From the IMG/VR virus record IMGVR_UViG_3300045988_124082: 64,000 bases of DNA; one strand, given 5' to 3'. Both the position numbers and the translations under genes were made by a program. Positions 5,917 through 36,846 of the stretch are shown one piece after another. Each line of letters opens with the position of its first letter. Position 1 is the stretch's first letter. The DNA is from a virus. Below the pieces are notes generated by a model. It ran no database searches and was not told where the DNA came from. It worked only from the letters and a program-made list of their open reading frames with translations.

Positions 5917-6234
5917 ATGAGGGATATAACCATGAGTAAGAAAATTAAAGTAGCTGTCTGCAAAGGCAGACACGAAATCCCACAGGCTACAGATGGGGCA
6001 ATCTTTGGAAACACAATAAAGGAAATGGATCCATTTAGCCTGTTATTAGAAGCATCAAAGAGATTGTTCTCTGACTTTGCTTTACGTAGTGGAGATAGAG
6101 TAGACCTGTATGTAACAGGTCTAACAATGGCGACTCTAGCCATAGTAAATGCTTGTCTTTCGACAGGCATAAGGATTGTATGCTATCACTATGATAGAGA
6201 AACAGGGAAATATATCCCACAGCCTATGCTGTAA
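5917..6234 (+). CDS. Hypothetical protein
   Basis: ORF with AAGGGGG RBS 7 nt upstream. Confidence 0.65.
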   Translation: MRDITMSKKIKVAVCKGRHEIPQATDGAIFGNTIKEMDPFSLLLEASKRLFSDFALRSGDRVDLYVTGLTMATLAIVNACLSTGIRIVCYHYDRETGKYIPQPML

Positions 6235-15597: not shown

Positions 15598-15641
15598 GTT
15601 ACACATTTACATATTCAGGAGATTAAAAGGAGAACAAAATT

Positions 15642-15881
15642 ATGATGATCAATGTAACATTAGCAACAACAGCAGGTAAAAGTCTTGTAACAGTAGAAGG
15701 AAACCAGACTCCATCACAAGTACTTGAAGAGAACAGCGTAGCAACAACAGGAGCTACTGTATCACTCAATATGAGACCACTTGCAGATAATGAAAAAGGT
15801 AAAACTTTTGAAGAATTAGGATGCACAGATGGTGATTCCGTAATGTTATCAGCAGTTGTAAAAGCAGACTCAGCAATGTAG
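15642..15881 (+). CDS. Small protein B1 (79 aa), ThiS/MoaD/ubiquitin-like beta-grasp candidate
   Basis: The pattern V-TL....VTVEG..TPSQVLEE......GATVSLN.....L..LGCTDGDSVMLSAVVKA resembles sulfur-carrier/Ubl proteins. There is no C-terminal GG (it ends KADSAM). Confidence 0.7.
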   Translation: MMINVTLATTAGKSLVTVEGNQTPSQVLEENSVATTGATVSLNMRPLADNEKGKTFEELGCTDGDSVMLSAVVKADSAM

Positions 15882-16559: not shown

Positions 16560-16799
16560 ATGATGATCAATGTAACATTAGCAACAACAGCAGGTAAAAG
16601 TCTTGTAACAGTAGAAGGAAACCAGACTCCAAGTGAAGTGTTAGCTGAAAATAATGTAGCAACAACAGGAGCTACAATCTCTATGAATATGAGACCATTA
16701 AGTGTAGCTGAATTAACTGATACATTTGAAGAGCTTGGATGTAATGATGGTGATTCTATCATGTTATCAGCTGTAGTTAAAGCCGATTCTGCTTTCTAG
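16560..16799 (+). CDS. Small protein B2 (79 aa), paralog of B1 (beta-grasp candidate)
   Basis: The first 24 codons plus the RBS are 100 percent identical at nucleotide level to B1; the remainder has diverged. Ends KADSAF. Confidence 0.7.
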   Translation: MMINVTLATTAGKSLVTVEGNQTPSEVLAENNVATTGATISMNMRPLSVAELTDTFEELGCNDGDSIMLSAVVKADSAF

Positions 16800-16827
16800 T
16801 TCTAGCAGGTAAAGAGAGAAGAACATG

Positions 16828-16864
16828 AAGAGCGTAGGTGTCATAGCCTACGTTCTTATTTTTT
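16828..16864 (+). terminator. Rho-independent terminator
   Basis: AAGAGCGTAGG...CCTACGTTCTT followed by a T run. Confidence 0.7.
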
Positions 16865-16901: not shown

Positions 16902-18626
16902 ATGGAAGAAAGAAAATTTAAAACAAATGACTACGTGGTAGTAAAGAATTGGGATGAATTGGTTGAAGAATATGGATTGGTTGATCCCGAATCTGTTAGA
17001 GAACAGATGAGGAATGATGAGGATTGTTATTGGTCAGAAGAAGAGATTAATGAATACAATCCAGAAATCATTAATGTTCCATGGGGAGCAAGAAAAGCAA
17101 TGATTGATGAACTTGTAACTATGGGATTGATGAAGGTCAAAGAATATGGAGAAGATGGAAGTGTCCAGCTGGAAAGCGATACTTACATTGACAGTATTAT
17201 CCCAGAAGAGATTTTACAGCCTGTAAGCGAAGATGAGGTTAAGAATTATATCTTTTGGCTTAATAAAAAAGATGATGATTTTGTAATGCAGGACTACGAT
17301 TTTGCTCAAGCAAATGGATTATTAACTTATGTAGGATTGGTCAATGGAAGTATTGATTTTATCGGAGGAAACAAAGGTAATGAATTAATTGCTTATTTCT
17401 ATGCAGCATCAATTTTAAGATCAATTGATTTTAATGAGGGAGTTACAGAATATCTAAGCCATTGTCATGAAGTTAGTGTTCATACATTTGACCATTTTTA
17501 CACTGACAGAAAATCACATTTGCAGATTGTAGCGATAAAAGATGTTTCTGAGGATGGAGAAGAAGAACTTGTTAATATGTGGACAGAAAGAGGCTGGGAA
17601 GAAGTTGAATTCCACAACGATAAAGTTTTTAAGGTGTTTACTCATCCTGAGCAGAAAGGAACCACAATTTTCTTAAATGGAGAAAAAGAAGATTATAAAA
17701 AAGACTTTGAAGCTTATGAACTGATCATGCAGATTGTTAGCCATGTTTATGGAGATACAATGCAGGATGTTTTAGAAGTTGTTAGCAATAGAGATAGATC
17801 AGAAGCTATGAATATGATCCGTGATATTTTCTCAGAAGCGGATAAGCAGTATGTGAAAATCAAAAACAAAATTAATATTGAAAACTTCCTAAAGGTTGCA
17901 TCTAAAGGTCAGCAGAAACATTTAGAACGAGAAGTTCAGAATAATCAGGACAGAGTTAATAGCTATAAAGATAATCTCAGACACTCTCTTAAAACATTAA
18001 GAGAGTCACAAGAAAGACTCTTCGGATATTTACATATGAAAGATGATTCCCAGTTCAATGAAGTAAGAGAAATGTTAAACATGATGGGTGATGATTTAAG
18101 TGATTTTAGGTGTAATCCTAGCGGTGATTGGTTTAGCTTTGCAATCGTTCAGCCATTGTTATATTGGGATGATGATATTTACGAAAGAAACTTTGATGAT
18201 GAATACTTTGAAGAAGAGGCTGAATATGAAAAGACGAAAAAAGTATTCGACAAAATCTTTAAGACAAGAGAATACACTTTGTATCTACAGCAAGCAATAA
18301 TGATTGACTTGGTCAATAATAAACCAGTTGCAATGAGAGATTATAATTATACAAATGATATGTATATTCCTAATCCACATTTCCATGAGTTTAACTGTTG
18401 GGGAGCAAATGAAGCAAATTTAATTGAAGCGATTTCAAACAGAGATTATATGTCAATTTTCAATCTTGTTAGATCAGCTGTCGCTGGAATTTCTTTATAT
18501 GATACTTCTGTAGTAGGAGCTTTCTTTAATTATTGTGAAGACAGATTTACAAATAAAAAATGTCTTAAAGTTCCAGGAAGAGAAGAATTTATTTCATTCA
18601 AAGAAGCAAGAGCATTGGAGGATTAA
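16902..18626 (+). CDS. Large hypothetical protein (574 aa); possible E2-like Cys segment near the C-terminus (speculative)
   Basis: ORF plus RBS. Followed 3 nt later by the JAB gene. C-terminal IPNPHFHEFNCWG loosely recalls the E2 HPN...C motif. Confidence 0.7.
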   Translation: MEERKFKTNDYVVVKNWDELVEEYGLVDPESVREQMRNDEDCYWSEEEINEYNPEIINVPWGARKAMIDELVTMGLMKVKEYGEDGSVQLESDTYIDSIIPEEILQPVSEDEVKNYIFWLNKKDDDFVMQDYDFAQANGLLTYVGLVNGSIDFIGGNKGNELIAYFYAASILRSIDFNEGVTEYLSHCHEVSVHTFDHFYTDRKSHLQIVAIKDVSEDGEEELVNMWTERGWEEVEFHNDKVFKVFTHPEQKGTTIFLNGEKEDYKKDFEAYELIMQIVSHVYGDTMQDVLEVVSNRDRSEAMNMIRDIFSEADKQYVKIKNKINIENFLKVASKGQQKHLEREVQNNQDRVNSYKDNLRHSLKTLRESQERLFGYLHMKDDSQFNEVREMLNMMGDDLSDFRCNPSGDWFSFAIVQPLLYWDDDIYERNFDDEYFEEEAEYEKTKKVFDKIFKTREYTLYLQQAIMIDLVNNKPVAMRDYNYTNDMYIPNPHFHEFNCWGANEANLIEAISNRDYMSIFNLVRSAVAGISLYDTSVVGAFFNYCEDRFTNKKCLKVPGREEFISFKEARALED

Positions 18627-18629
18627 AAA

Positions 18630-19595
18630 ATGAGAAAAATTAGAATTGAAGAATTAGATGCACAGAGATTAGTACAAGAAGTGATAGCGAAAGCTATCAC
18701 TTCTATTGGTTTAACCCCAGAAAAATTACAGATGGAAATTAATCCTAATGTAAAACTTAAAGAAGAAGAGAAAATTGAGATTGCTTTTTCAGAAATGGCA
18801 GAAAAGAAAATGTATTATCTCATTCACGAATGTGAAAAAGAAATTGGTTGGCATGGACTTGTCAGTCGAAGCGAAAATGGATTCTATGTAGAAGACATTA
18901 TTGTATTCCCACAGGAAGTTACAGGAGCTACTGTAACATCAGATGATGAGCTATATCCAACTTGGATGCTTAGTCAGCCAGATGAGATTTACAATAAGAT
19001 TAGATTTCATGGACATTCACATGTAAATATGGCAACAAGTCCAAGTGGTGTAGATGATACGTATCAGGAGCAGATTATTCAACAGTTTATGTCTAGTCCA
19101 CTTGATGAAAATAATTTTTACATATTCGGCATTTTCAACAAAAAGGGAAGCTATTGGTTAAATATTTATGACATTTATAACAATAAATTTTATGAGACAG
19201 ATGATATTAGTTATGTTTTTTATCAGTCAGATGAACAGGCATGGGCTAAAGAACAGATTAAAGAGAATGTAAAAGAAGAAGTAGCTGTAAAAACAAGTGG
19301 ATATTATTCTAATGGATATGGTTATAGAGGCGGTGGATACGGAACAGAAGAGCTGTATGATACTTGGAAAAAGAACTATGATAAAAACAAAGGCAAAGAG
19401 AAGCCAAAAAAAGATGAAGCAGAGTTGCGAAAAGAATTAAGTGGAGCAATTATTGCAGATTTAACACCTCCAAAATGGCATAGTAAATGGAGTAAATGTT
19501 TACAGAGGATGATTAGCTGTGATGAAAGTCTTGATGATTTAATTGAAGAGTATTGTATTACTTATCCAGATTATAGTGGAACAAAAAAGAAATAG
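18630..19595 (+). CDS. JAB/MPN+ (JAMM) metallopeptidase domain protein
   Basis: Complete JAMM signature: E in HECEKEIGWHG, then HGHSHVNMATSPSGVDD, which fits H-x-H-x7-S-x2-D. Confidence 0.8.
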   Translation: MRKIRIEELDAQRLVQEVIAKAITSIGLTPEKLQMEINPNVKLKEEEKIEIAFSEMAEKKMYYLIHECEKEIGWHGLVSRSENGFYVEDIIVFPQEVTGATVTSDDELYPTWMLSQPDEIYNKIRFHGHSHVNMATSPSGVDDTYQEQIIQQFMSSPLDENNFYIFGIFNKKGSYWLNIYDIYNNKFYETDDISYVFYQSDEQAWAKEQIKENVKEEVAVKTSGYYSNGYGYRGGGYGTEELYDTWKKNYDKNKGKEKPKKDEAELRKELSGAIIADLTPPKWHSKWSKCLQRMISCDESLDDLIEEYCITYPDYSGTKKK

Positions 19596-19607
19596 AGGAG
19601 GATGATT

Positions 19608-20285
19608 ATGAATACAAGTAAAGTTTTAGAATTTTTTGATGCACAGACATTAGTTAAAAAACCAGTTCATGTAATTGGATGTGGAGCAATTGGCTCAAAT
19701 GTCGCAGAACAGCTTACAAGATTAGGAGTCTCAGTGATTCATCTCTGGGATTACGATCATGTTGAGCCTAAAAATGTAACTAATCAGATGTTCTTTGATG
19801 GGGATATCGGAAAAGCTAAGGTAGATGCAATTGAAAATTTGTGTAAGTCAATTAATCCACAGATTAAAATAATCAAACATGAAAGAGGGATTGATGATCC
19901 ATATATTCTTACAGGATATGTATTCTTATGTGTAGATAATATTGAGCTTAGAAAGAAAATCGTAGAGGCCAATAAGTTAAATCCAAACTGTATTGCGTTC
20001 TTTGATTTTAGAATGAGACTTACAGATGCACAGCATTATTTTGCTGATTGTTCAGTTAAAGAACAGGTTGAAAACTTAATTGGAACCATGAATTTTACCC
20101 ATGAAGAAGCGGCTGCAGCAACTCCTACAAGTGCTTGTGGAGTGGAATTAAGTGTATGCTATACAGTTAAGAATATTGTTTGTTATGGAATTGCAAATTT
20201 TGTTAACTTTTGCCTAGGGAATGAACCAAAACAGATGATTATTACAGATATGAAGACAATGGATGTGACAGTATTCCCTATGTAA
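19608..20285 (+). CDS. ThiF/MoeB/E1-like adenylyltransferase
   Basis: VHVIGCGAIGSNVAEQLTRLGV..IHLWDYDHVEPKNVTNQ: a Rossmann GxGxxG followed by the D-x-D-x-V-E-x-x-N motif. ATG 19608 is preferred over 19602 on RBS spacing. Confidence 0.8.
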   Translation: MNTSKVLEFFDAQTLVKKPVHVIGCGAIGSNVAEQLTRLGVSVIHLWDYDHVEPKNVTNQMFFDGDIGKAKVDAIENLCKSINPQIKIIKHERGIDDPYILTGYVFLCVDNIELRKKIVEANKLNPNCIAFFDFRMRLTDAQHYFADCSVKEQVENLIGTMNFTHEEAAAATPTSACGVELSVCYTVKNIVCYGIANFVNFCLGNEPKQMIITDMKTMDVTVFPM

Positions 20286-21396: not shown

Positions 21397-21713
21397 ATGC
21401 CAGAGGATGTAAAGTACCGTCCAGTTCCTAAAGGGTATACAGGTGTTTTTAGGCTAAGAGAAGATACGACGTCCTTAGCCAATGAGTTTTATGGAGCATG
21501 GGGCATTATAGACGACAAATTTTTAATCGATGAAGATTATTATAATGAAGAAAATGAATTTAAGGGAGATCCCGATCATGTAATTCGAGTAAGTTTTTAT
21601 CCTAGCCTTTTAGATCTGCAAAGAGGTGAAATCTTATTAGAGAAGTAGGAAGAGTGTCTGGGACAGAAAAGTATTGTTATATTCCTTTCAAAAGAAAAAA
21701 TAATTACTATTAA
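21397..21713 (+). pseudogene. Frameshifted family III NNYY-tail gene (or recoding site)
   Basis: Frame 0 stops at 21646-21648. Frame +2 continues ...EVGRVSGTEKYCYIPFKRKNNYY-stop (21711-21713) and aligns with its paralogs. The shift window is about 21628-21648. Confidence 0.6.
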
Positions 21714-21728
21714 GAAAGAGGTAATCAA

Positions 21729-22043
21729 ATGGAAAATAATGGTATATATCCTCCAGTACCTAAGGGATACAAGGGTGTTTTTAGAGTTAGACCTGATATG
21801 ATAGGATCAGATAATATGTTCTATGAAGCATATGGTATTACAGGAAAAGGTATTATAGAAGACATTGATTATTTAGAAGGCCAAGGAGAATTTACAGGAA
21901 ATCCACATCATATAATTAAAGCCATTTTTTATCAAACCTATGAAGACTTAAAGAACAGAGAATGTATGATACAAGGAAGGCCTGTTAAAATAAAAGAACA
22001 CTTACTTTACCCCGTGTCAAACAAGAAGAACAATTACTGGTAG
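21729..22043 (+). CDS. NNYY-tail small protein (family III); tail NKKNNYW
   Basis: YPPVPKGYKGVFRV...GNPHHIIKA. Confidence 0.75.
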   Translation: MENNGIYPPVPKGYKGVFRVRPDMIGSDNMFYEAYGITGKGIIEDIDYLEGQGEFTGNPHHIIKAIFYQTYEDLKNRECMIQGRPVKIKEHLLYPVSNKKNNYW

Positions 22044-22053
22044 GTGATTTAAG

Positions 22054-22323
22054 ATGATAGACGCAAAAGATATTAAAGAGGGTATGAAAATTAAGTATAA
22101 TGGTTGGGAATGGACTATAACAAAAGTGTTTGCAAAATATAATAATGTCTTGGATCTTCGGAATGATTGTATTAAAAAAATCATTGATCAAGATAGTTCA
22201 TTGATTTGGATTGAAGCATCGAAGAGACGCTTTGTGCCTGAATCTATGACTATGGAGTGGTTCTTTAAAGAACTGAAATATGGAACAATAAAGATTTTAA
22301 ATCGTAAAAATAATTATTATTGA
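22054..22323 (+). CDS. NNYY-tail small protein (family IV); tail NRKNNYY
   Basis: ORF plus RBS TAGGTGA. Confidence 0.75.
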   Translation: MIDAKDIKEGMKIKYNGWEWTITKVFAKYNNVLDLRNDCIKKIIDQDSSLIWIEASKRRFVPESMTMEWFFKELKYGTIKILNRKNNYY

Positions 22324-22332
22324 GGTGATGTG

Positions 22333-22623
22333 ATGTATTTAGAAGACATTAAAGTTGGTCAGAAAGTGAACTATCGAGGTCATTCCTACATAATAACTAA
22401 AAATGTTGTAAAGTATCGGGGAATAATTAGACCTTATTATTCTACATATTCGTATATCAAGGAAAGTACAAATTGTCATAGATCACGAATGTATTTTCGA
22501 AGAGTAGAAAATAAAAATGAACCGATTGATGGATTTTGGTTATTATATGACGAGATTGAAGAAAAAATGGATCGAGGGCTTATTAAATTTTTGAACATGT
22601 CAAAGAAAAATAATTATTATTAA
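22333..22623 (+). CDS. NNYY-tail small protein (family IV); tail SKKNNYY
   Basis: ATG 5 nt after GAGGTG. Confidence 0.75.
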   Translation: MYLEDIKVGQKVNYRGHSYIITKNVVKYRGIIRPYYSTYSYIKESTNCHRSRMYFRRVENKNEPIDGFWLLYDEIEEKMDRGLIKFLNMSKKNNYY

Positions 22624-22638
22624 AGGGGGTGCCACAAA

Positions 22639-23940
22639 GTGAATGGAATCAATAAAAGGAAATTAGAACTGTTTATGGATGATCAGCTATGGAGACAAAA
22701 TATTACACATCAGCAAAGCAAAGGTGTACATAGAGATGTATTAAGAATTGTGTGTGATCCAGAATACAAAGCACGGCTTTTAGGAATGATCTGGGATGGT
22801 AATTACAAAATTGCACCTCCGTATGTAGTAGAAATTCCTAAAGACAATGGAAAAGTAAGAGAAGTGTATGTTAATCAGCCAATTGACAGATTTGTTATGA
22901 CACAAATCAATTATGTTTATATGCAATTATATGGTCATATGATTCATCCAAGATGTGTGTCTTATCAGAAAGGAATTGGAGTTAAAAATATCGTAGATGA
23001 TATTTGTATGGAGCTTAAGAAACATCAAGGAGCTGTCGGGTATAAGGTAGACATTAGTAAGTATTTTGACAGTGTAAGCCGTGAGGTCCTTAATGAAATG
23101 ATTGATAAAATTGATACAGGAAGTCCTATTGATCAGATCGTAAGAGATTATTATATGGATGATTGTATCATTGATCAGAAAGGAAATGTTATTGAGAAAT
23201 ACAAAAGTATGACTCAGGGTTGTGCAGTGTCTACATTCTTTGCCAATTGTGTTTTAAAAGATGTTGATGAAGAGTTAAGCAAGATGGATATTATTTATTA
23301 CAGATATTCAGATGATATCTTGATGGTTGGTAAGGATGCAGATAAGGCTTTGAAGATGTTGGGAGAAATGTTAGAAACGAAAGGACTTACATTAAATCCT
23401 AAAAAGGTAGAAACAGTCAGTACAGATCAATGGTTTACATTCTTAGGAGTGCGAATTAATGGACAGAAAAGAAGTTTTTCTGAGAAGAGCTTAAAGGAAT
23501 TTCAGAAACATATTAGAGAATATGTAAATAAGAAAGCAGGAATTGGTAGCGTAAAAGTTGCAATCAGACAAATTAATAAATATCTGTATTTGAATTTCTT
23601 AAGGAATCCTAATGAGTTTGGTTGGGCTGAGTATTTCTTTAGTATTGTGAATGTCGAAGATGATATTAAGACATTAGATATGTGGATTAAAGATACACTC
23701 AGAGGTTTGTATACTGGTAAGAGAGGAAAAGAACAGATAGGTGGACTAGGTGTAAATAAAGTAACTAATGAATGTGGAGTATTAAGAGGGAAGGGCAACA
23801 AAGTAAGTTCAAATTTACGTAAAACAAGAAGTGATAAAGACATTTTAGAAGAAGCAGGATATATCAGTATGAATGAAATGTATCATCAGTTTAGATATAG
23901 CAAAGAATTGTACAGGGCTTCATTGACGGCTTTATCTTAA
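22639..23940 (+). CDS. Reverse transcriptase (free-standing, group-II-intron-like RT with a thumb/X-like C-terminus)
   Basis: RT motifs in order: IPKDNGKVREV (1), DRFVMTQI (2), YKVDISKYFDSV (3), TQGCAVSTFFANCVL (4), YYRYSDDILMVG (5, YxDD), KGLTLNPKKVE (6), FTFLGVRI (7). GTG start behind AAAGGGGGTG, 15 nt after the last NNYY gene. Confidence 0.85.
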   Translation: MNGINKRKLELFMDDQLWRQNITHQQSKGVHRDVLRIVCDPEYKARLLGMIWDGNYKIAPPYVVEIPKDNGKVREVYVNQPIDRFVMTQINYVYMQLYGHMIHPRCVSYQKGIGVKNIVDDICMELKKHQGAVGYKVDISKYFDSVSREVLNEMIDKIDTGSPIDQIVRDYYMDDCIIDQKGNVIEKYKSMTQGCAVSTFFANCVLKDVDEELSKMDIIYYRYSDDILMVGKDADKALKMLGEMLETKGLTLNPKKVETVSTDQWFTFLGVRINGQKRSFSEKSLKEFQKHIREYVNKKAGIGSVKVAIRQINKYLYLNFLRNPNEFGWAEYFFSIVNVEDDIKTLDMWIKDTLRGLYTGKRGKEQIGGLGVNKVTNECGVLRGKGNKVSSNLRKTRSDKDILEEAGYISMNEMYHQFRYSKELYRASLTALS

Positions 23941-23987
23941 GTGTAACCTAACACGAGGTACTTATGTGAAATGTTATAAGTCAAATC

Positions 23988-24075
23988 AGATCCCTAGGAT
24001 ACACGGGTGATTCCATGCATGGTTGATAACCAGCATTCCATCAACCCGTTCCTCCCTGGATCTTATCATCATAAA
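23988..24075 (+). repeat. Hairpin-box unit 1: imperfect ~76-nt hairpin plus ATCATAAA box (24068-24075)
   Basis: AGATCC..AGGA..ACGGGT...ACCCGT.TCCT..GGATCT, then TATC-ATCATAAA. Confidence 0.55.
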
Positions 24076-24160
24076 GGAAATTTAGAAACGTGTTATTAAC
24101 ATGAACATAAGAAAGTTACTATGGACGTTGTATGTGAGACAATGGAATTACATATAAGGC

Positions 24161-24235
24161 GCGTTGAAGCTGCAGGATGACTGGCAATACATTGACCAAG
24201 TCATCCCTGCAGCTCAACCGCTTTATAATCATAAA
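24161..24235 (+). repeat. Hairpin-box unit 2: ~61-nt hairpin plus ATCATAAA box (24228-24235)
   Basis: GCGgTTGAAGCTGCAGGATGACT-loop-AGTCATCCcTGCAGCTCAAcCGC with bulges, then TTTATA-ATCATAAA. Confidence 0.6.
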
Positions 24236-24318
24236 AGAATAAAGGAACATAGCATGATTGTGAGCATACAAACAAGCTAACATGGGCTAAACATACGAGA
24301 CGTTGAATCATACATAAT

Positions 24319-24422
24319 AAGGGCACAGCTGCCTTATGCAGCGGGAAATTAGTCTCCTCGACAATAATTTCACCGCTGCCACAGGCGTGCGTGCCCTTAT
24401 TAATCATAAACCAATAGAGAAA
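24319..24422 (+). repeat. Hairpin-box unit 3: ~80-nt three-segment hairpin plus a 20-nt box ATCATAAACCAATAGAGAAA
   Basis: AAGGGCAC/GTGCCCTT, GCAGCGG/CCGCTGC and GAAATTA/TAATTTC stems. The box at 24403-24422 is identical to 26662-26681. Confidence 0.6.
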
Positions 24423-24459
24423 ACATGTCGCCAATGTAGAGTATGTAGAAAGGAAAATC

Positions 24460-24996
24460 ATGAAAAGTTTATTTAAAGTATTGTATGAGCTGTCACAAGG
24501 AAACACCTTAATGATTAATAGTTGCATGTCTTTTAGAATGACAACTGATCTATACAAAAGACAAGTGAGATTTAAGAAGTATAAGGTTGTTGATCAAGGA
24601 AGCGTAGTAAGTGATGTGACATTGTGTAGTGGAGAGGTTATTGAGTATGATGACTTAATAAAGGAAGGAGATTTAGATTTTATATTACCAATTGAATTAA
24701 ACGAAAAAGAAAATCCATATGAGGTTATTGAATACCTGTATGGATTATTTTATTGTTCAGTTCCTGATAGATCTGCTGTTCAAAAGAAACAGAATTTTAT
24801 AGCAAAAGGATTAAATGATTTTGGGGCAAATGATTTTACAGGAATGAGAAGAAGTGAAATTCAGCCATTGTTAGAACTCTATGTGTTACTCGCTGGAATG
24901 AAAGGATGGATCACTTGGAAAGATGATAAGTTGTTCTTTTGGAAAGGTGAGCATAAGAGTTTGTATATATATAGAAAATGGATTTTAGGTTATTAG
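24460..24996 (+). CDS. Hypothetical protein (178 aa)
   Basis: ORF with RBS GAAAGGAAAATC. First gene after hairpin cluster 1. Confidence 0.65.
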   Translation: MKSLFKVLYELSQGNTLMINSCMSFRMTTDLYKRQVRFKKYKVVDQGSVVSDVTLCSGEVIEYDDLIKEGDLDFILPIELNEKENPYEVIEYLYGLFYCSVPDRSAVQKKQNFIAKGLNDFGANDFTGMRRSEIQPLLELYVLLAGMKGWITWKDDKLFFWKGEHKSLYIYRKWILGY

Positions 24997-25013
24997 GAAA
25001 GGAAGAACGTAAA

Positions 25014-25775
25014 ATGAATGTAGAAAAGAGTTTGGAAAAAGCAGGAGTAGACACAAAGAAATATCCTTCATTAGCTATGCAGAATATTTTAGGATATCAA
25101 GGGAAAGCGTTTGCAGAAAATTCATACCTGTATAGAAAGATCATGGGAGATGGGCATGTGTTTAATCCTTATATACACAGAAGATGGCTTCCATATCAGT
25201 TTATGAATGCTGTCCATTGGACAAGACAGTATTATGCAGAGACTATTGGTTATGTAAAGATGCTTGAAAAAGAATTGATGCGTGGCAATAATGTAGATAA
25301 TTGGAAATATATGTACGATAAATTTGGAAAAGAGCTTAATGCTTTATATACACTCTCAAAAAGAGATAAAAAAGCGTATAAAGAAAGATGGGCTGCTTTT
25401 GGAAGATTAGAAATTTTGAAATATTTCTCTCAAGGGTTTGATTGTGTAGGGATAAATCAAAATACATTTTTGGAAATGAAAAATTTATTAGCGGATGAAA
25501 GATTTGAAGCTGAACGATATTGGCGATATCCTAATTGTTTATTGTATAAACGGCCACAATTTAGAAAAGATTTGGTAACAACAACTTTCCATTCAGGAAT
25601 TTATTTTACATTAAAACATATTATGATGTTTGATTATGAAAAATTACATATGTCTTCATCCCAAAAAGAAAGCCTAAAACGGATTAGAGAAGATTTAATT
25701 AACGGAGATTTCAATTATGAGCAGGCTTTTACAATTATTGAAGATTACGTAGCAAGATATTACAATCCAAGATAG
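25014..25775 (+). CDS. Hypothetical protein (253 aa)
   Basis: Internal ATG behind AGGAAAGGAAG is preferred over 24978, which overlaps the previous gene. Confidence 0.6.
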   Translation: MNVEKSLEKAGVDTKKYPSLAMQNILGYQGKAFAENSYLYRKIMGDGHVFNPYIHRRWLPYQFMNAVHWTRQYYAETIGYVKMLEKELMRGNNVDNWKYMYDKFGKELNALYTLSKRDKKAYKERWAAFGRLEILKYFSQGFDCVGINQNTFLEMKNLLADERFEAERYWRYPNCLLYKRPQFRKDLVTTTFHSGIYFTLKHIMMFDYEKLHMSSSQKESLKRIREDLINGDFNYEQAFTIIEDYVARYYNPR

Positions 25776-25788
25776 AGAGGGGAATTAT

Positions 25789-26286
25789 ATGCCAGAAGAA
25801 GTAAAAGAATTAACTATTAAAGAAGCAGATGAGTTTATTAAAAAGAAAGTAATCGGAGTTCTCATAAAAGCAGATGTAACAATCATAGTAAATGAATTAG
25901 AAGCTATTTATGGAGATTCGTTAGCAAATGGAACGGTTGGAGATTCGTTTTATATTTATAACTGTCCAGAAAATTATGATGAATCAGATTATGAAGAGCT
26001 TGAGTATATTGATTATGATGATATGTATGAAGATGATATTCGTGAAGAGAGAGCTGAAGCAGGAGATTTTAATCTTAAAGTATATAAGTGGTTCATTGTT
26101 GATCCAAGATTTACAGAATTATTAAAAGATTTGGGCGAGATAGTTGCTCCAGATATTAACCTTTGGGGATGTTGTGAAGACATTGAAGACGCAAGCGAAG
26201 CAACTGTAATTGAAGAATTTTTTGAAAGAATGCAGATTCTGTATGGACAAAAGAATGCAATTATTACAGAAAAGCTGAGTGCTTAA
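25789..26286 (+). CDS. Highly acidic hypothetical protein (possible DNA mimic; speculative)
   Basis: ORF plus RBS GAGAGGGGAA. Contains the stretch ENYDESDYEELEYIDYDDMYEDDIREERAEAGD. Confidence 0.65.
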   Translation: MPEEVKELTIKEADEFIKKKVIGVLIKADVTIIVNELEAIYGDSLANGTVGDSFYIYNCPENYDESDYEELEYIDYDDMYEDDIREERAEAGDFNLKVYKWFIVDPRFTELLKDLGEIVAPDINLWGCCEDIEDASEATVIEEFFERMQILYGQKNAIITEKLSA

Positions 26287-26290
26287 ACCA

Positions 26291-26332
26291 ACAAAAGGGA
26301 GATGTACCCTTTGTAGAAATACTTATCATAAA
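26291..26332 (+). repeat. Hairpin-box unit 4a: short hairpin plus ATCATAAA box (26325-26332)
   Basis: ACAAAAGGG-agatgta-CCCTTTGT, then agaaatactt-ATCATAAA. Confidence 0.5.
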
Positions 26333-26337
26333 CCATC

Positions 26338-26454
26338 GAAGAAGGAGGATCTTCAGAACCCTCCGCATTGATTACGTTAAACATCACTTCGTAATGATTT
26401 AACAGCATCAACTGCGAGAGGAGTTCATGAAGATCCTCCTTCTTGAATCATAAA
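26338..26454 (+). repeat. Hairpin-box unit 4b: ~108-nt hairpin plus ATCATAAA box (26447-26454)
   Basis: The 16-bp basal stem pairs GAAGAAGGAGGATCTT with AAGATCCTCCTTCTT. An inner stem pairs ATTACG with CGTAAT. Confidence 0.6.
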
Positions 26455-26550
26455 TACATAGAGGAATACATCAAAGATAAGTTGTTCTACATTTTTTGCA
26501 AGAGATATACTTGCTGATTTAATGAATTGTGTTTGAATCACTCACATAAT

Positions 26551-26681
26551 CGGGAGAAAGGAGGCATAATCTCATCTCCTCCACTGGCAAGCCAGGGAGG
26601 ACTTGATGAGATTACATTCCGCTGCGGCGTCATTGTGCCTCCATTCTCCTGATCATGTTTGATCATAAACCAATAGAGAAA
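26551..26681 (+). repeat. Hairpin-box unit 5: ~99-nt hairpin plus the 20-nt box ATCATAAACCAATAGAGAAA
   Basis: Stems GGGAGAA.GGAGGCA/TGCCTCC.TTCTCC, AATCTCATC/GATGAGATT and CCTCC/GGAGG. Box at 26662-26681. Confidence 0.6.
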
Positions 26682-26742
26682 TATATCACCTCACAATGAG
26701 TTAAATCTGTAACTATTAATTTACATAGAAAAGGAGAAACAG

Positions 26743-27312
26743 ATGAAAGCGATTTTTAAAGGAGAAAAAGTTGTAAGAACTAAATTAACATTAGACACTG
26801 GACTTGAAAGACTGGAAGGATCGGATGTTAGCTATTTTGTGAGACGACCTAAGCTGACACATGAAGTAAGTGAAGAAAAGGGTGGAATCATTTTAGAAAA
26901 GGATCTTTCTTTTAATAAAATCTTACTCTTAAAAGATGCTAATGAAGTGACAGTTGATGAATTTACATTTGTATTATCAGGCATTATTGATTACAACTTA
27001 GATGAAGAATGTGTAGTTTTTTACACAGACGCTTGTTGTTCAATTGAAGATACAGATGGGCAGAACAAAATCGAAGCCTATCATAAACTTTTGGATGCAT
27101 ATGAAAAGCAGGTAGGAACGAAAGAAAGTCAAGAGGAAGAATGCGATTGTGCTTACTGTAATGGAGATTACGTTTGTGCTTTTTGTAGAGATGATGATGA
27201 ATCAGAATTAGATGATGAAGAGGACATCGGAAAGAAAGCAATGGATAATCTAGAAGATCTAAATAAAATTCTTGCAGAGTTCTTCGGGGATATTCCGGGA
27301 TTCAAGTGTTAG
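26743..27312 (+). CDS. Hypothetical acidic Cys-rich protein
   Basis: RBS AAAAGGAGAAAC; CDCAYCNGDYVCAFC. Confidence 0.65.
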   Translation: MKAIFKGEKVVRTKLTLDTGLERLEGSDVSYFVRRPKLTHEVSEEKGGIILEKDLSFNKILLLKDANEVTVDEFTFVLSGIIDYNLDEECVVFYTDACCSIEDTDGQNKIEAYHKLLDAYEKQVGTKESQEEECDCAYCNGDYVCAFCRDDDESELDDEEDIGKKAMDNLEDLNKILAEFFGDIPGFKC

Positions 27313-27328
27313 TTAAAGATTGATATTG

Positions 27329-27359
27329 AGAGAGACACTTCGTATGAGGTGTCTCTTTT
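27329..27359 (+). terminator. Rho-independent terminator
   Basis: AGAGACACT-tcgtatga-GGTGTCTCT followed by T4. Confidence 0.7.
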
Positions 27360-27397
27360 AGTATATAGATTTTTTAGAAAGGAGATGAAAAAGGAAA

Positions 27398-28192
27398 ATG
27401 GCAACAGAGTTTGACAAACGAATGAAAGCTTATGAATGTGTCTCAAGACAGTACTTAACAAGAAGAGTACCAGTTGCAATTAGGGTAGATGGAAAGGCAT
27501 TTCATACATTCACTAGAGGGTTTCAGAAACCATTTGATGAAGTGCTTAGCAACACAATGCAAGCCACAATGATGAAAATGTGTAGACAGATTCAGGGTTG
27601 TGTGTTTGCTTACACACAGAGTGATGAAATTACATTTATTCTTATCGATTATCAGAAGCTAAATTCTGATGGCTGGTTTAACTACCGTACTGATAAGATG
27701 TGTAGCATTGCAGCGAGTATGGCTACTATGGAGTTCAATAAGGCTTTTAGTGCTTTTGTTTATGGATTTAAGGTAAACAAGGGAGAAGACATATCAAGCG
27801 AAGATATGGAAGTGCTTAAGGCCTATGAGAAATCTAAGGAACGTGGAGCTATGTTTGATGCTAGAGCGTTCTCAATTCCAAAAGAAGAAGTCACAAACTT
27901 AATCTATTGGAGACAACAGGATGCTATGAGAAATGCAGTTCAGATGGTTGGACAAGCATTTTATTCTCACAAAGAACTTCAGGGTGTTAATTGTGAAATG
28001 CTTAAAGAAATGTTACTGGCTGATAAGGGAATTGAATGGGATAAGATTCCTGTGAAATACCAGAGAGGCAGTTGTTGTGTCAAGGTTGATGGTGAATGGA
28101 CTATTGACAATAACATTTCTATCTTCAGAGGTAGTGACAGAGAGCAAATTGATAAGCTTGTGTTTGTTGAGAGTGAAGAGGATCAGGAGTGA
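27398..28192 (+). CDS. Thg1-like protein (tRNA-His guanylyltransferase family, 3'-5' nucleotidyltransferase)
   Basis: FDKRMKAYE...RRVPVAIRVDGKAFHTFTRGFQKPFDE...VFAYTQSDEITFIL matches the Thg1/TLP N-terminal catalytic core pattern. Confidence 0.75.
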   Translation: MATEFDKRMKAYECVSRQYLTRRVPVAIRVDGKAFHTFTRGFQKPFDEVLSNTMQATMMKMCRQIQGCVFAYTQSDEITFILIDYQKLNSDGWFNYRTDKMCSIAASMATMEFNKAFSAFVYGFKVNKGEDISSEDMEVLKAYEKSKERGAMFDARAFSIPKEEVTNLIYWRQQDAMRNAVQMVGQAFYSHKELQGVNCEMLKEMLLADKGIEWDKIPVKYQRGSCCVKVDGEWTIDNNISIFRGSDREQIDKLVFVESEEDQE

Positions 28193-30139: not shown

Positions 30140-30289
30140 GGGGACATAGCTTAATAGGTAAAGCAAAACTACATTCTTCCATAAAGAACTTAAAACTAAA
30201 ATTTTCATATTAAATATAAACATTTTGTACCTCCCTATTGTAATAAAATAACACTTATATTTATGTGGGTTCGAATCCCACTGTCCCCA
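30140..30289 (+). tRNA. tRNA-like gene with an aberrant ~95-nt AT-rich middle; anticodon not assignable
   Basis: 7-bp acceptor stem GGGGACA/TGTCCCC. D arm GCTT-AATAGGTA-AAGC (30149-30164). T arm GTGGG-TTCGAAT-CCCAC (30265-30281). Discriminator A, no encoded CCA. I could not fold a 5-bp anticodon stem in 30166-30259. Confidence 0.45.
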
Positions 30290-36645: not shown

Positions 36646-36712
36646 ATACATAAAGAAACTAATCGAGTATCAGATTTAGGATACAAGGCAGTATTAACCA
36701 CAAAGTAATTAG

Positions 36713-36766
36713 AAAACCGGCGATTGGAATCTACCACAGGAAACATTCCAATCGCCGGTTTTTTTC
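36713..36766 (+). terminator. Strong Rho-independent terminator
   Basis: 14-bp stem CCGGCGATTGGAAT/ATTCCAATCGCCGG followed by T7. Confidence 0.85.
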
Positions 36767-36846
36767 TAATTACTAAGATCATAAACAAAATAAAGGAAGA
36801 TACCACACTGATGAGTATTCTGTTTAAAAGAAAAGGAGATTACATA

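Follow-up and report, generated by a model that had tools for sequence, protein, structure and literature searches.

Many classes of the UG/Abi family of reverse transcriptases (RTs) are antiviral (PMC9226505). The class UG27, part of this family, was defined in 2022 by Mestre et al., who also reported the protein clusters 346 and 337 as its partners (PMC9226505). In a preprint of September 2026 (10.64898/2026.09.22.753630) these partners are named sORF and bORF, and five UG27 systems in E. coli are described as making single-stranded DNA (ssDNA) of 50–100 nucleotides (nt) that maps to central hairpins. Synthesis of this complementary DNA (cDNA) begins at a conserved AUC and runs to the far side of the hairpin, and a YSDD-to-YSAA change, or deletion of either accessory open reading frame (ORF), abolishes the ssDNA. 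The preprint also states that unit number differs among related phages, and that its authors found no complementarity of the cDNAs to phage or host genomes. The locus described here lies in a 64,000-nt stretch of viral DNA (IMG/VR record IMGVR_UViG_3300045988_124082; the window, below) and comprises an RT gene, two accessory genes and an array of structured RNA units that is split in two (Table 1). By analogy with the characterised homologues, it is very probably a complete UG27 retroelement system with a homologous biochemical mechanism, a judgement that concerns identity and mechanism and not role.

The RT gene begins 15 nt after the end of the preceding ORF (at 22623), and this short gap holds a Shine-Dalgarno-like AAAGGGGGTG. 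In the protein, YSDD occupies residues 223–226, all four of which (Y223, S224, D225 and D226) are invariant across 39 homologues, and TQGCAVSTFFAN, INKYLYLNFLRNPNEFGWAEYFF and MWIKDTLRGL are found at 192, 312 and 348, respectively. Residues 66–273 match Pfam RVT_1 (E 5.6e-21), and residues 286–356 show a sub-threshold match to the Pfam thumb/X domain GIIM (E 0.031). The PADLOC profile RT_UG27 is matched with 546.2 bits (E 1.3e-164) over residues 5–431, corresponding to positions 2–419 of the 420 in the profile. The second-best RT class in PADLOC is RT_UG26 with 174 bits (E 8.9e-52), and all others reach at most about 107 bits, among them Drt9 (98 bits) and Drt2 (58 bits). Homologues of the RT number 1124 at E ≤ 1e-20, and a cluster with 99% identity has 459 member sequences. 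The nearest solved chains by sequence are RTs of group II introns and the G2L group (E 2.3e-30), and no UG27 RT has a solved structure. As judged from these profiles, the RT belongs to UG27, a class 2 UG/Abi RT, and not to the RTs of group II introns, diversity-generating retroelements (DGRs) or retrons. A first-pass annotation of this DNA had recognised a free-standing phage RT with YSDD and a thumb/X-like C-terminus, and both descriptions hold: the ORF, the quoted peptide strings (including MWIKDTLRGL), the RVT_1 match and the weak GIIM match are all present. Its proposal of an undescribed retroelement has to be given up, as the RT falls firmly in UG27 (546 vs 174 bits) and is adjoined by RTas346 and RTas337 partners and an array; placement against the reference classes by profile score puts it inside a known class, which that annotation had itself named as grounds for abandoning the idea.

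The partner genes were followed through 29 loci (28 viral loci and the cultured Bacteroides phage BS-TP1), with RT identities from 99% down to 31%, by an iterated profile search of their ORFs. In 28 of the 29, an sORF homologue is encoded on the strand of the RT and downstream of it, the remaining locus ending at a contig edge, and a bORF homologue follows the sORF in 26. Neither protein has a Pfam or PHROG match, and no effector domain was recognised in either by family profiles or fold searches. The AlphaFold2 model of sORF, a protein with 299 homologues, is confident (48 sequences; predicted local distance difference test (pLDDT) 89.6, predicted template modelling score 0.88). Foldseek found no fold match to it in the PDB (best E 4), and its single match in a viral structure library is an uncharacterised phage protein. 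An oligonucleotide-binding (OB) fold, to which a weak profile match with Tetrahymena telomerase p19 (E 0.012) had pointed, was rejected as unsupported by Foldseek on this confident model. The bORF carries a conserved motif, DGxVFNPYIHRRWLPxQF, with G59, N63, R68, R69 and Q74 invariant among 20 sequences. Its model is all-alpha (pLDDT 76), with the motif segment in a low-confidence region, and has no fold match in the PDB.

The gaps between genes at 23941–24459 and 26287–26742 fold better than their shuffles (z −7.7 and −10.6, respectively) and hold five + strand RNA units of the UG27 type, three after the RT gene and two after a clade-specific ORF. The units were decomposed into elements by hand, and the pieces were verified against the sequence. 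On the 5' side, each consists of a small hairpin, a two-part basal stem and an AAUCA-like junction, leading into a central hairpin of 65–115 nt; on the 3' side there follow AUCAUAAA-N4-UARAG, 3 nt, a pseudoknot segment of 5–6 nt and the 3' strands of the basal stem. Four exact copies of the motif ATCNTAAANNNNTANAG are present, all on the + strand and all within the two gaps, compared with 0.15 expected. The repeated structured-RNA array that the first-pass annotation had placed downstream of the RT is confirmed by these copies and by the folding scores. The spacing between AUC and UARAG is N9 in four units, N12 in unit 1, where the motif is a variant with a 3-nt insertion, and N10 in a probable orphan unit described below. 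The 5' junctions read AAUCA, GAAUCA, AAAUCA, AACCA or AUUACA here and AAUUCA in BS-TP1. All units have a small-hairpin loop that can base-pair with the 5–6 nt following the motif, through a sequence that differs from unit to unit. The proposed partners are AACACG/CGUGUU in unit 1, ACAUG/CAUGU in unit 3, GAUGUA/UACAUC in unit 4 and GAUAUA/UAUAUC in unit 5, with CUAUG/CAUAG as a further pair among the five. Partners that differ between units and are complementary within each represent, if these pairings are correct, covariation among paralogous units.

A MAFFT alignment of the five units was limited to their 3' halves, and so gave no direct structural seed. A covariance model (R1) was bootstrapped instead from trimmed, N-padded copies of units 2, 4 and 5, with a maximum match of about 123 nt. 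It recovers its seeds (unit 2 with 52 bits) together with two non-seeds, unit 3 (18.4 bits, E 0.054 over 20 kb) and the orphan unit, and misses unit 1, which is therefore the least typical. The orphan unit lies about 10 kb downstream of the array, and was picked both by a whole-window scan for the motif plus a hairpin (at 36778) and by R1, where it is the best match apart from units 1–5 (19.4 bits, E 0.1 for the whole window and 0.03 over 20 kb); it and unit 3 are the sole non-seed matches of R1 below E 0.1. Read by eye, its small hairpin is CUAAUC-GAGUAUC-AGAUUUAG, of which the loop GUAUC pairs with GAUAC after the motif, and its basal stems are GGAUAC/GUAUUC and GCAGU/ACUG. With every element of a unit thus present, it is a probable sixth UG27 RNA unit, held with lower confidence than units 1–5 because the next gene starts within it. 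In one related phage (L041), the apical loop of the orphan unit, 14 nt long (36730–36743, CTACCACAGGAAAC), is present as its exact reverse complement between unchanged 27-bp arms, a change that on its sequence is a small inversion between inverted repeats. The motif in the literal form of the preprint, ATCNNNNNNNTANAG, has 15 matches vs 11.7 expected, none of them in the array, where the N9 spacing accounts for its absence. One further candidate, at 6050–6199 (+) with its motif-plus-hairpin site at 6185, has a strong hairpin of about 130 nt followed by ATCACTATGATAGAG, a literal AUC-N7-UANAG. It lies within a plausible ORF of 105 amino acids (aa; 5917–6234) and is without the other unit elements, and for these reasons it was judged a chance occurrence.

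Close relatives were compared in ten phages with RTs 95–99% identical. In the central hairpins of units 4 and 5, eight base pairs have changed on both sides, a number reached by none of 500 shuffles and far from the 0–1 of slid controls. Three such pairs are seen in units 1–3 (reached by 40 of 500 shuffles), and unit 2 has two compensatory pairs in one relative (L014). Variable columns make up 19% of the central hairpin vs 6% of the scaffold (Fisher p 3e-9). The copied hairpins change three times faster than the scaffold, and their pairing is kept.

The same kind of array, with AUC-N8/9-UANAG motifs, is present in distant loci, and the hairpin-loop pseudoknot arrangement also occurs in L023 and in BS-TP1 (L039), which has eight motif sites at a spacing of about 140–180 nt. 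A cross-locus test of the pseudoknot is noisy, and in its strict hairpin-loop version gives a modest enrichment, 70% for cognate vs 41% for non-cognate partners (p 5e-4); two earlier automatic tests, with a wide upstream window and with parsing of minimum-free-energy folds, did not discriminate. In the BS-TP1 record (PQ571274.1, 79351–83904), the UG27-type RT (38% identical) is annotated as ‘tail protein’, the 1.35-kb array after it is unannotated, and the sORF and bORF homologues are each annotated as ‘hypothetical protein’. The relatives with 95–99% identity are on IMG/VR viral contigs; those longer than 100 kb measure 115–134 kb, and two others 70 and 93 kb. Genes in the window form a single long same-strand run. 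The UG27 system here is phage-encoded, and its carrier is probably a large gut phage of about 115–134 kb.

If the locus works as its homologues do, the RT, sORF and bORF would form a complex on each RNA unit, and reverse transcription would begin immediately 3' of the central hairpin, at the conserved AUC. The RT would copy this hairpin and halt at its 5' base, with the release of one short ssDNA hairpin per unit (predicted length 73–121 nt). For units 1–5 the predicted cDNAs are 83, 73, 91, 111 and 121 nt long, and all fold as DNA hairpins. Given cDNA synthesis in this phage of the kind seen in the homologues, five, perhaps six, different ssDNA hairpins would be expected from the locus. The first-pass ideas that the RNAs template cDNA, and that a YSDD-to-YSAA mutant would serve as control, both agree with the results on homologues in the preprint (10.64898/2026.09.22.753630).

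A number of observations weigh against these readings. Three of the predicted cDNAs (91–121 nt) are near or above the published range of 50–100 nt. The 3' motif here is AUC-N9-UARAG (with N10 and N12 in two units) and the 5' side AAUCA/AAYCA, vs AUC-N7-UANAG and UUYA in the preprint; the 5' sequences are related, not identical. The scaffold helices are invariant in close relatives, which speaks neither for nor against them, and their support comes from the comparison of paralogous units and the noisy cross-locus test. R1, made from trimmed and N-padded seeds, cannot span the long hairpins and missed unit 1. As for a counter-defence role, discussed below, the central hairpins have no complementary stretch longer than 13 nt elsewhere in the window.

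Two other explanations concern the identity of the components. The RT could be a degenerate G2L, retron or DGR enzyme with its partners missed, as its nearest solved structures, its weak thumb match and its 124 bits with the NCBIfam group II RT/maturase model (TIGR04416) might suggest. That score is far under the cut-off of 300 bits, as is that of the retron model NF038233 (71.6 vs 235 bits), compared with 546 bits for the UG27 profile. Rfam was scanned at gathering thresholds over the whole window and at E ≤ 1 over 21500–27500, and in the latter interval, even at E ≤ 1, none of its RNA families was matched, those of group II introns and retrons included. The NAxxH motif is absent from the RT translation. 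Direct repeats of at least 40 nt within 12–34 kb are only paralogous small genes with mixed substitutions, and as these are not adenine-specific, a template/variable pair of the DGR kind is absent. The locus does have the canonical UG27 partners, and the profile scores and gene context have already refuted this explanation. The first-pass annotation had likewise excluded a group II intron (from the 15 nt available upstream), a DGR (from the lack of a repeat pair) and a retron (from the lack of NAxxH), and in all three it was correct. The second explanation, under which the hairpins between the genes would have nothing to do with the RT and be ordinary terminators or regulatory stem-loops, is very unlikely for units 1–5. 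Long hairpins in intergenic DNA would suit it, and the orphan candidate at 36704–36774 has a T-run and precedes a ribosome-binding site. Set against this are the common 17-nt motif directly 3' of every hairpin, far above chance, and the architecture of small hairpin, pseudoknot and basal stem common to all units. The consensus terminator scan calls none of the central hairpins, like arrays follow UG27 RTs in distant phages, and homologous arrays have been shown experimentally to be RT templates, as reported in the preprint (10.64898/2026.09.22.753630).

The role of the system is a separate matter. Tentatively, the variable ssDNA hairpins may be decoys or ligands for host factors, recognised by their shape and serving counter-defence, although this could well be wrong. 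Such a role is more likely than that of guides base-pairing with nucleic acid, and is favoured by the fast but pairing-preserving change of the hairpins and by the gain, loss and dispersal of units. Phage-carried defence or superinfection exclusion, in which the cDNA or the RT activity would block rival phages or trigger abortive infection in the manner of DRT/Abi relatives, appears unlikely. It draws on membership of the UG/Abi family with its many antiviral classes (PMC9226505), on the filing of RT_UG27, RTas346 and RTas337 under DRT by PADLOC, and on the location of all five systems of the preprint in integrated prophages (10.64898/2026.09.22.753630). However, UG27 shows no defence-island enrichment and was predicted by Mestre et al. 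to have a non-defence role (PMC9226505); the locus here sits in a same-strand gene block of a phage genome of about 130 kb, its accessory proteins have no recognisable effector domain, and known DRT systems are without variable arrays of many different hairpins. The hairpins might instead serve DNA metabolism of the phage itself, for example as primers, as origin-like structures or as ligands in packaging or regulation, and not target host factors. This would fit the surroundings of the system, which are same-strand genes of an early or DNA-metabolism type; the lack of complementarity of the cDNAs elsewhere in the window also leaves room for structure rather than sequence to matter. Such a use is nonetheless distinctly improbable, since the copied hairpins evolve fast and differ wholly between units and phages, which would not be expected of ligands for conserved replication proteins of the phage, and unit number differs among related phages in the preprint (10.64898/2026.09.22.753630).

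UG27 is among the few RT systems routinely carried by phages rather than hosts, and is very common in human gut viromes. The element described here is already known in the sense that it is a standard UG27 member, of a kind biochemically characterised in 2026; the locus is categorically nothing new, but a clean and complete example. What is new is the split array, the probable orphan unit, the compensatory variation of the hairpins and accessory proteins without a PDB relative. A split and possibly dispersed array, fast hairpin change and accessory proteins unlike solved structures all bear on function, and favour diversifying pressure on hairpin shape or identity, as an arms-race function predicts.

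Table 1. Coordinates of the UG27 locus and associated features within the window.
Feature	Coordinates	Strand	Details
UG27 RT gene	22639..23940	+	GTG start; 433 aa
Non-coding RNA (ncRNA) unit 1 (170 nt)	23941..24110	+	central hairpin 23988-24063; divergent 3' motif AUCAUAAAGGAAAUUUAGAA
ncRNA unit 2 (155 nt)	24115..24269	+	central hairpin 24158-24222; exact motif 24228-24244
ncRNA unit 3 (171 nt)	24275..24445	+	central hairpin 24315-24402; exact motif 24403-24419
Small accessory protein sORF (178 aa; cluster 346)	24460..24996	+	PADLOC RTas346, E 6.3e-14
Large accessory protein bORF (265 aa; cluster 337)	24978..25775	+	PADLOC RTas337, E 2.4e-10
Clade-specific acidic ORF splitting the array (165 aa, isoelectric point (pI) 4.05)	25789..26286	+	no family match
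ncRNA unit 4 (197 nt)	26294..26490	+	central hairpin 26339-26444; exact motif 26447-26463
ncRNA unit 5 (210 nt)	26498..26707	+	central hairpin 26544-26658; exact motif 26662-26678
Probable sixth, orphan unit	36659..36819	+	perfect 27-bp central stem 36704-36774; motif AUCAUAAACAAAAUAAAGGAA
Terminator-like hairpin upstream of gene block	16828..16857	+	consensus scan
Terminator-like hairpin closing gene block	27323..27364	+	consensus scan; 19-pair stem, T-rich tail

The second part of the array is flanked by two acidic ORFs, the one that splits the array and another at 26743–27312 (+), with pI values of 4.05 and 4.30 and 42 and 46 Asp+Glu residues, respectively; neither has a significant family match. 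Homologues of the former are found in close relatives only (L011–L020), and those of the latter in the closest clade only, and because of this restriction neither is regarded as a core UG27 component. Further upstream, the genes at 16902–20285 (+) encode a 574-aa ORF without known function, a 321-aa ORF with a JAB/JAMM-like HGHSH...S..D motif, recognised on visual inspection and matched by no profile, as well as an E1-like ThiF protein (PF00899, E 9.6e-22) that matches the PADLOC E1-E2 profile in its E1 part only. Nineteen small ORFs of 71–145 aa between 8730 and 22623 (+) end in [RK]KNN[YF][YW] followed by a stop, and have no Pfam match. The codons of this KNNYY tail vary synonymously (AAT/AAC, TAT/TAC, TAA/TAG), which favours the peptide over the DNA as the target of selection. 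The three genes at 16902–20285 and the tagged small ORFs together look like an uncharacterised tag-processing or conjugation cassette.

The consensus scan finds no + strand terminator-like site between 16902 and 27312 other than coding-internal ones, with strong sites at 16828–16857 and 27323–27364, so the E1-like, JAB-like and KNNYY-tailed ORFs, the RT, both parts of the array and the accessory genes may form one transcript. A scan for sigma-70 promoters was uninformative (55 sites vs 55 expected). Strong Shine-Dalgarno sites suggest a host among the Bacillota. Homologues of the 574-aa, JAB-like and E1-like ORFs lie directly upstream of the RT in L021, L022, L023 and L026 and not in more distant loci. 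E1-like and JAB-like genes abut the RT in just one further clade, with RTs about 50% identical. The KNNYY-tailed ORFs occur in the closest phage clade only, and none of the more distant UG27 loci that were examined has them. Neither group of genes is a general UG27 partner. Of the link that the first-pass annotation had drawn between the RT and a protein-tag family, co-transcription remains plausible, with no terminator in between, and the confinement of the tagged ORFs to the closest clade speaks against a wider association. A more speculative and rather doubtful scheme would see the array as a fast-evolving modular library of ssDNA hairpins, acting as shape-recognised decoys or aptamers against host defence or sensing, with units placed anywhere and served in trans by one RT-sORF-bORF complex, and with the system perhaps tied to the E1-like and JAB-like genes.

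Just upstream of the E1-like/JAB-like block, a gene of about 79 aa is duplicated (approximately 15640–15880 and 16560–16800, +), the copies reading MMINVTLATTAGKS...KADSAM and ...KADSAF. They share 85% DNA identity over 168 nt, with substitutions that are not adenine-specific, and have no family match. Beyond the closing terminator, a tRNA-like sequence of 150 nt at 30140–30289 (+; Rfam RF00005, 43.7 bits) has canonical ends and an internal insertion of about 78 nt, and is not called by ARAGORN. A gene for a Thg1-like tRNA-His guanylyltransferase (27398–28192; PF04446, E 9.3e-32) is found 2 kb upstream of this sequence.

Compared with known systems, the RTs of group II introns and G2L are the closest solved structures by sequence, and the thumb/X-like region after the palm is a shared feature. 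In contrast to them, the present locus has no intron RNA or room for its domains and no maturase or endonuclease module, and its RT scores 124 vs 300 bits. Retrons also have an RT that copies part of a structured ncRNA into short, abundant hairpin ssDNA and needs accessory proteins, but the RT here is below the retron cut-off, without NAxxH and without an Rfam msr/msd match nearby, and retrons have one template unit per locus whereas here there are many. DRT2 (UG2) and DRT9 (UG28) are likewise class 2 UG systems, with a free-standing RT that has no fused domain, an adjoining structured ncRNA as template and cDNA as the functional output. They differ in acting in host defence, and in that one ncRNA gives rise to long cDNA of concatemeric or homopolymeric form; UG27, by contrast, is phage-borne, requires two further proteins and produces many different short hairpin cDNAs, templated by an array. 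With the described UG27 systems, the locus shares the RT, sORF and bORF that match the family profiles, YSDD, a phage genome as carrier, and an array of units of about 150–210 nt with a small basal hairpin, a pseudoknot, a central hairpin and AUC...UANAG. Published UG27 units are of about 135–170 nt, while the five here are of 155–210 nt, two of them above the published size modes, and the central hairpins of two units reach 106 and 115 nt. These and the remaining departures from the published description are matters of detail. Between AUC and UARAG the spacing is N9, N10 or N12 where the preprint has N7, and the 5' sequence is AAUCA/AAYCA where it has UUYA. Finally, the array is split by the acidic clade-specific ORF, and a probable orphan unit stands 10 kb away from it.

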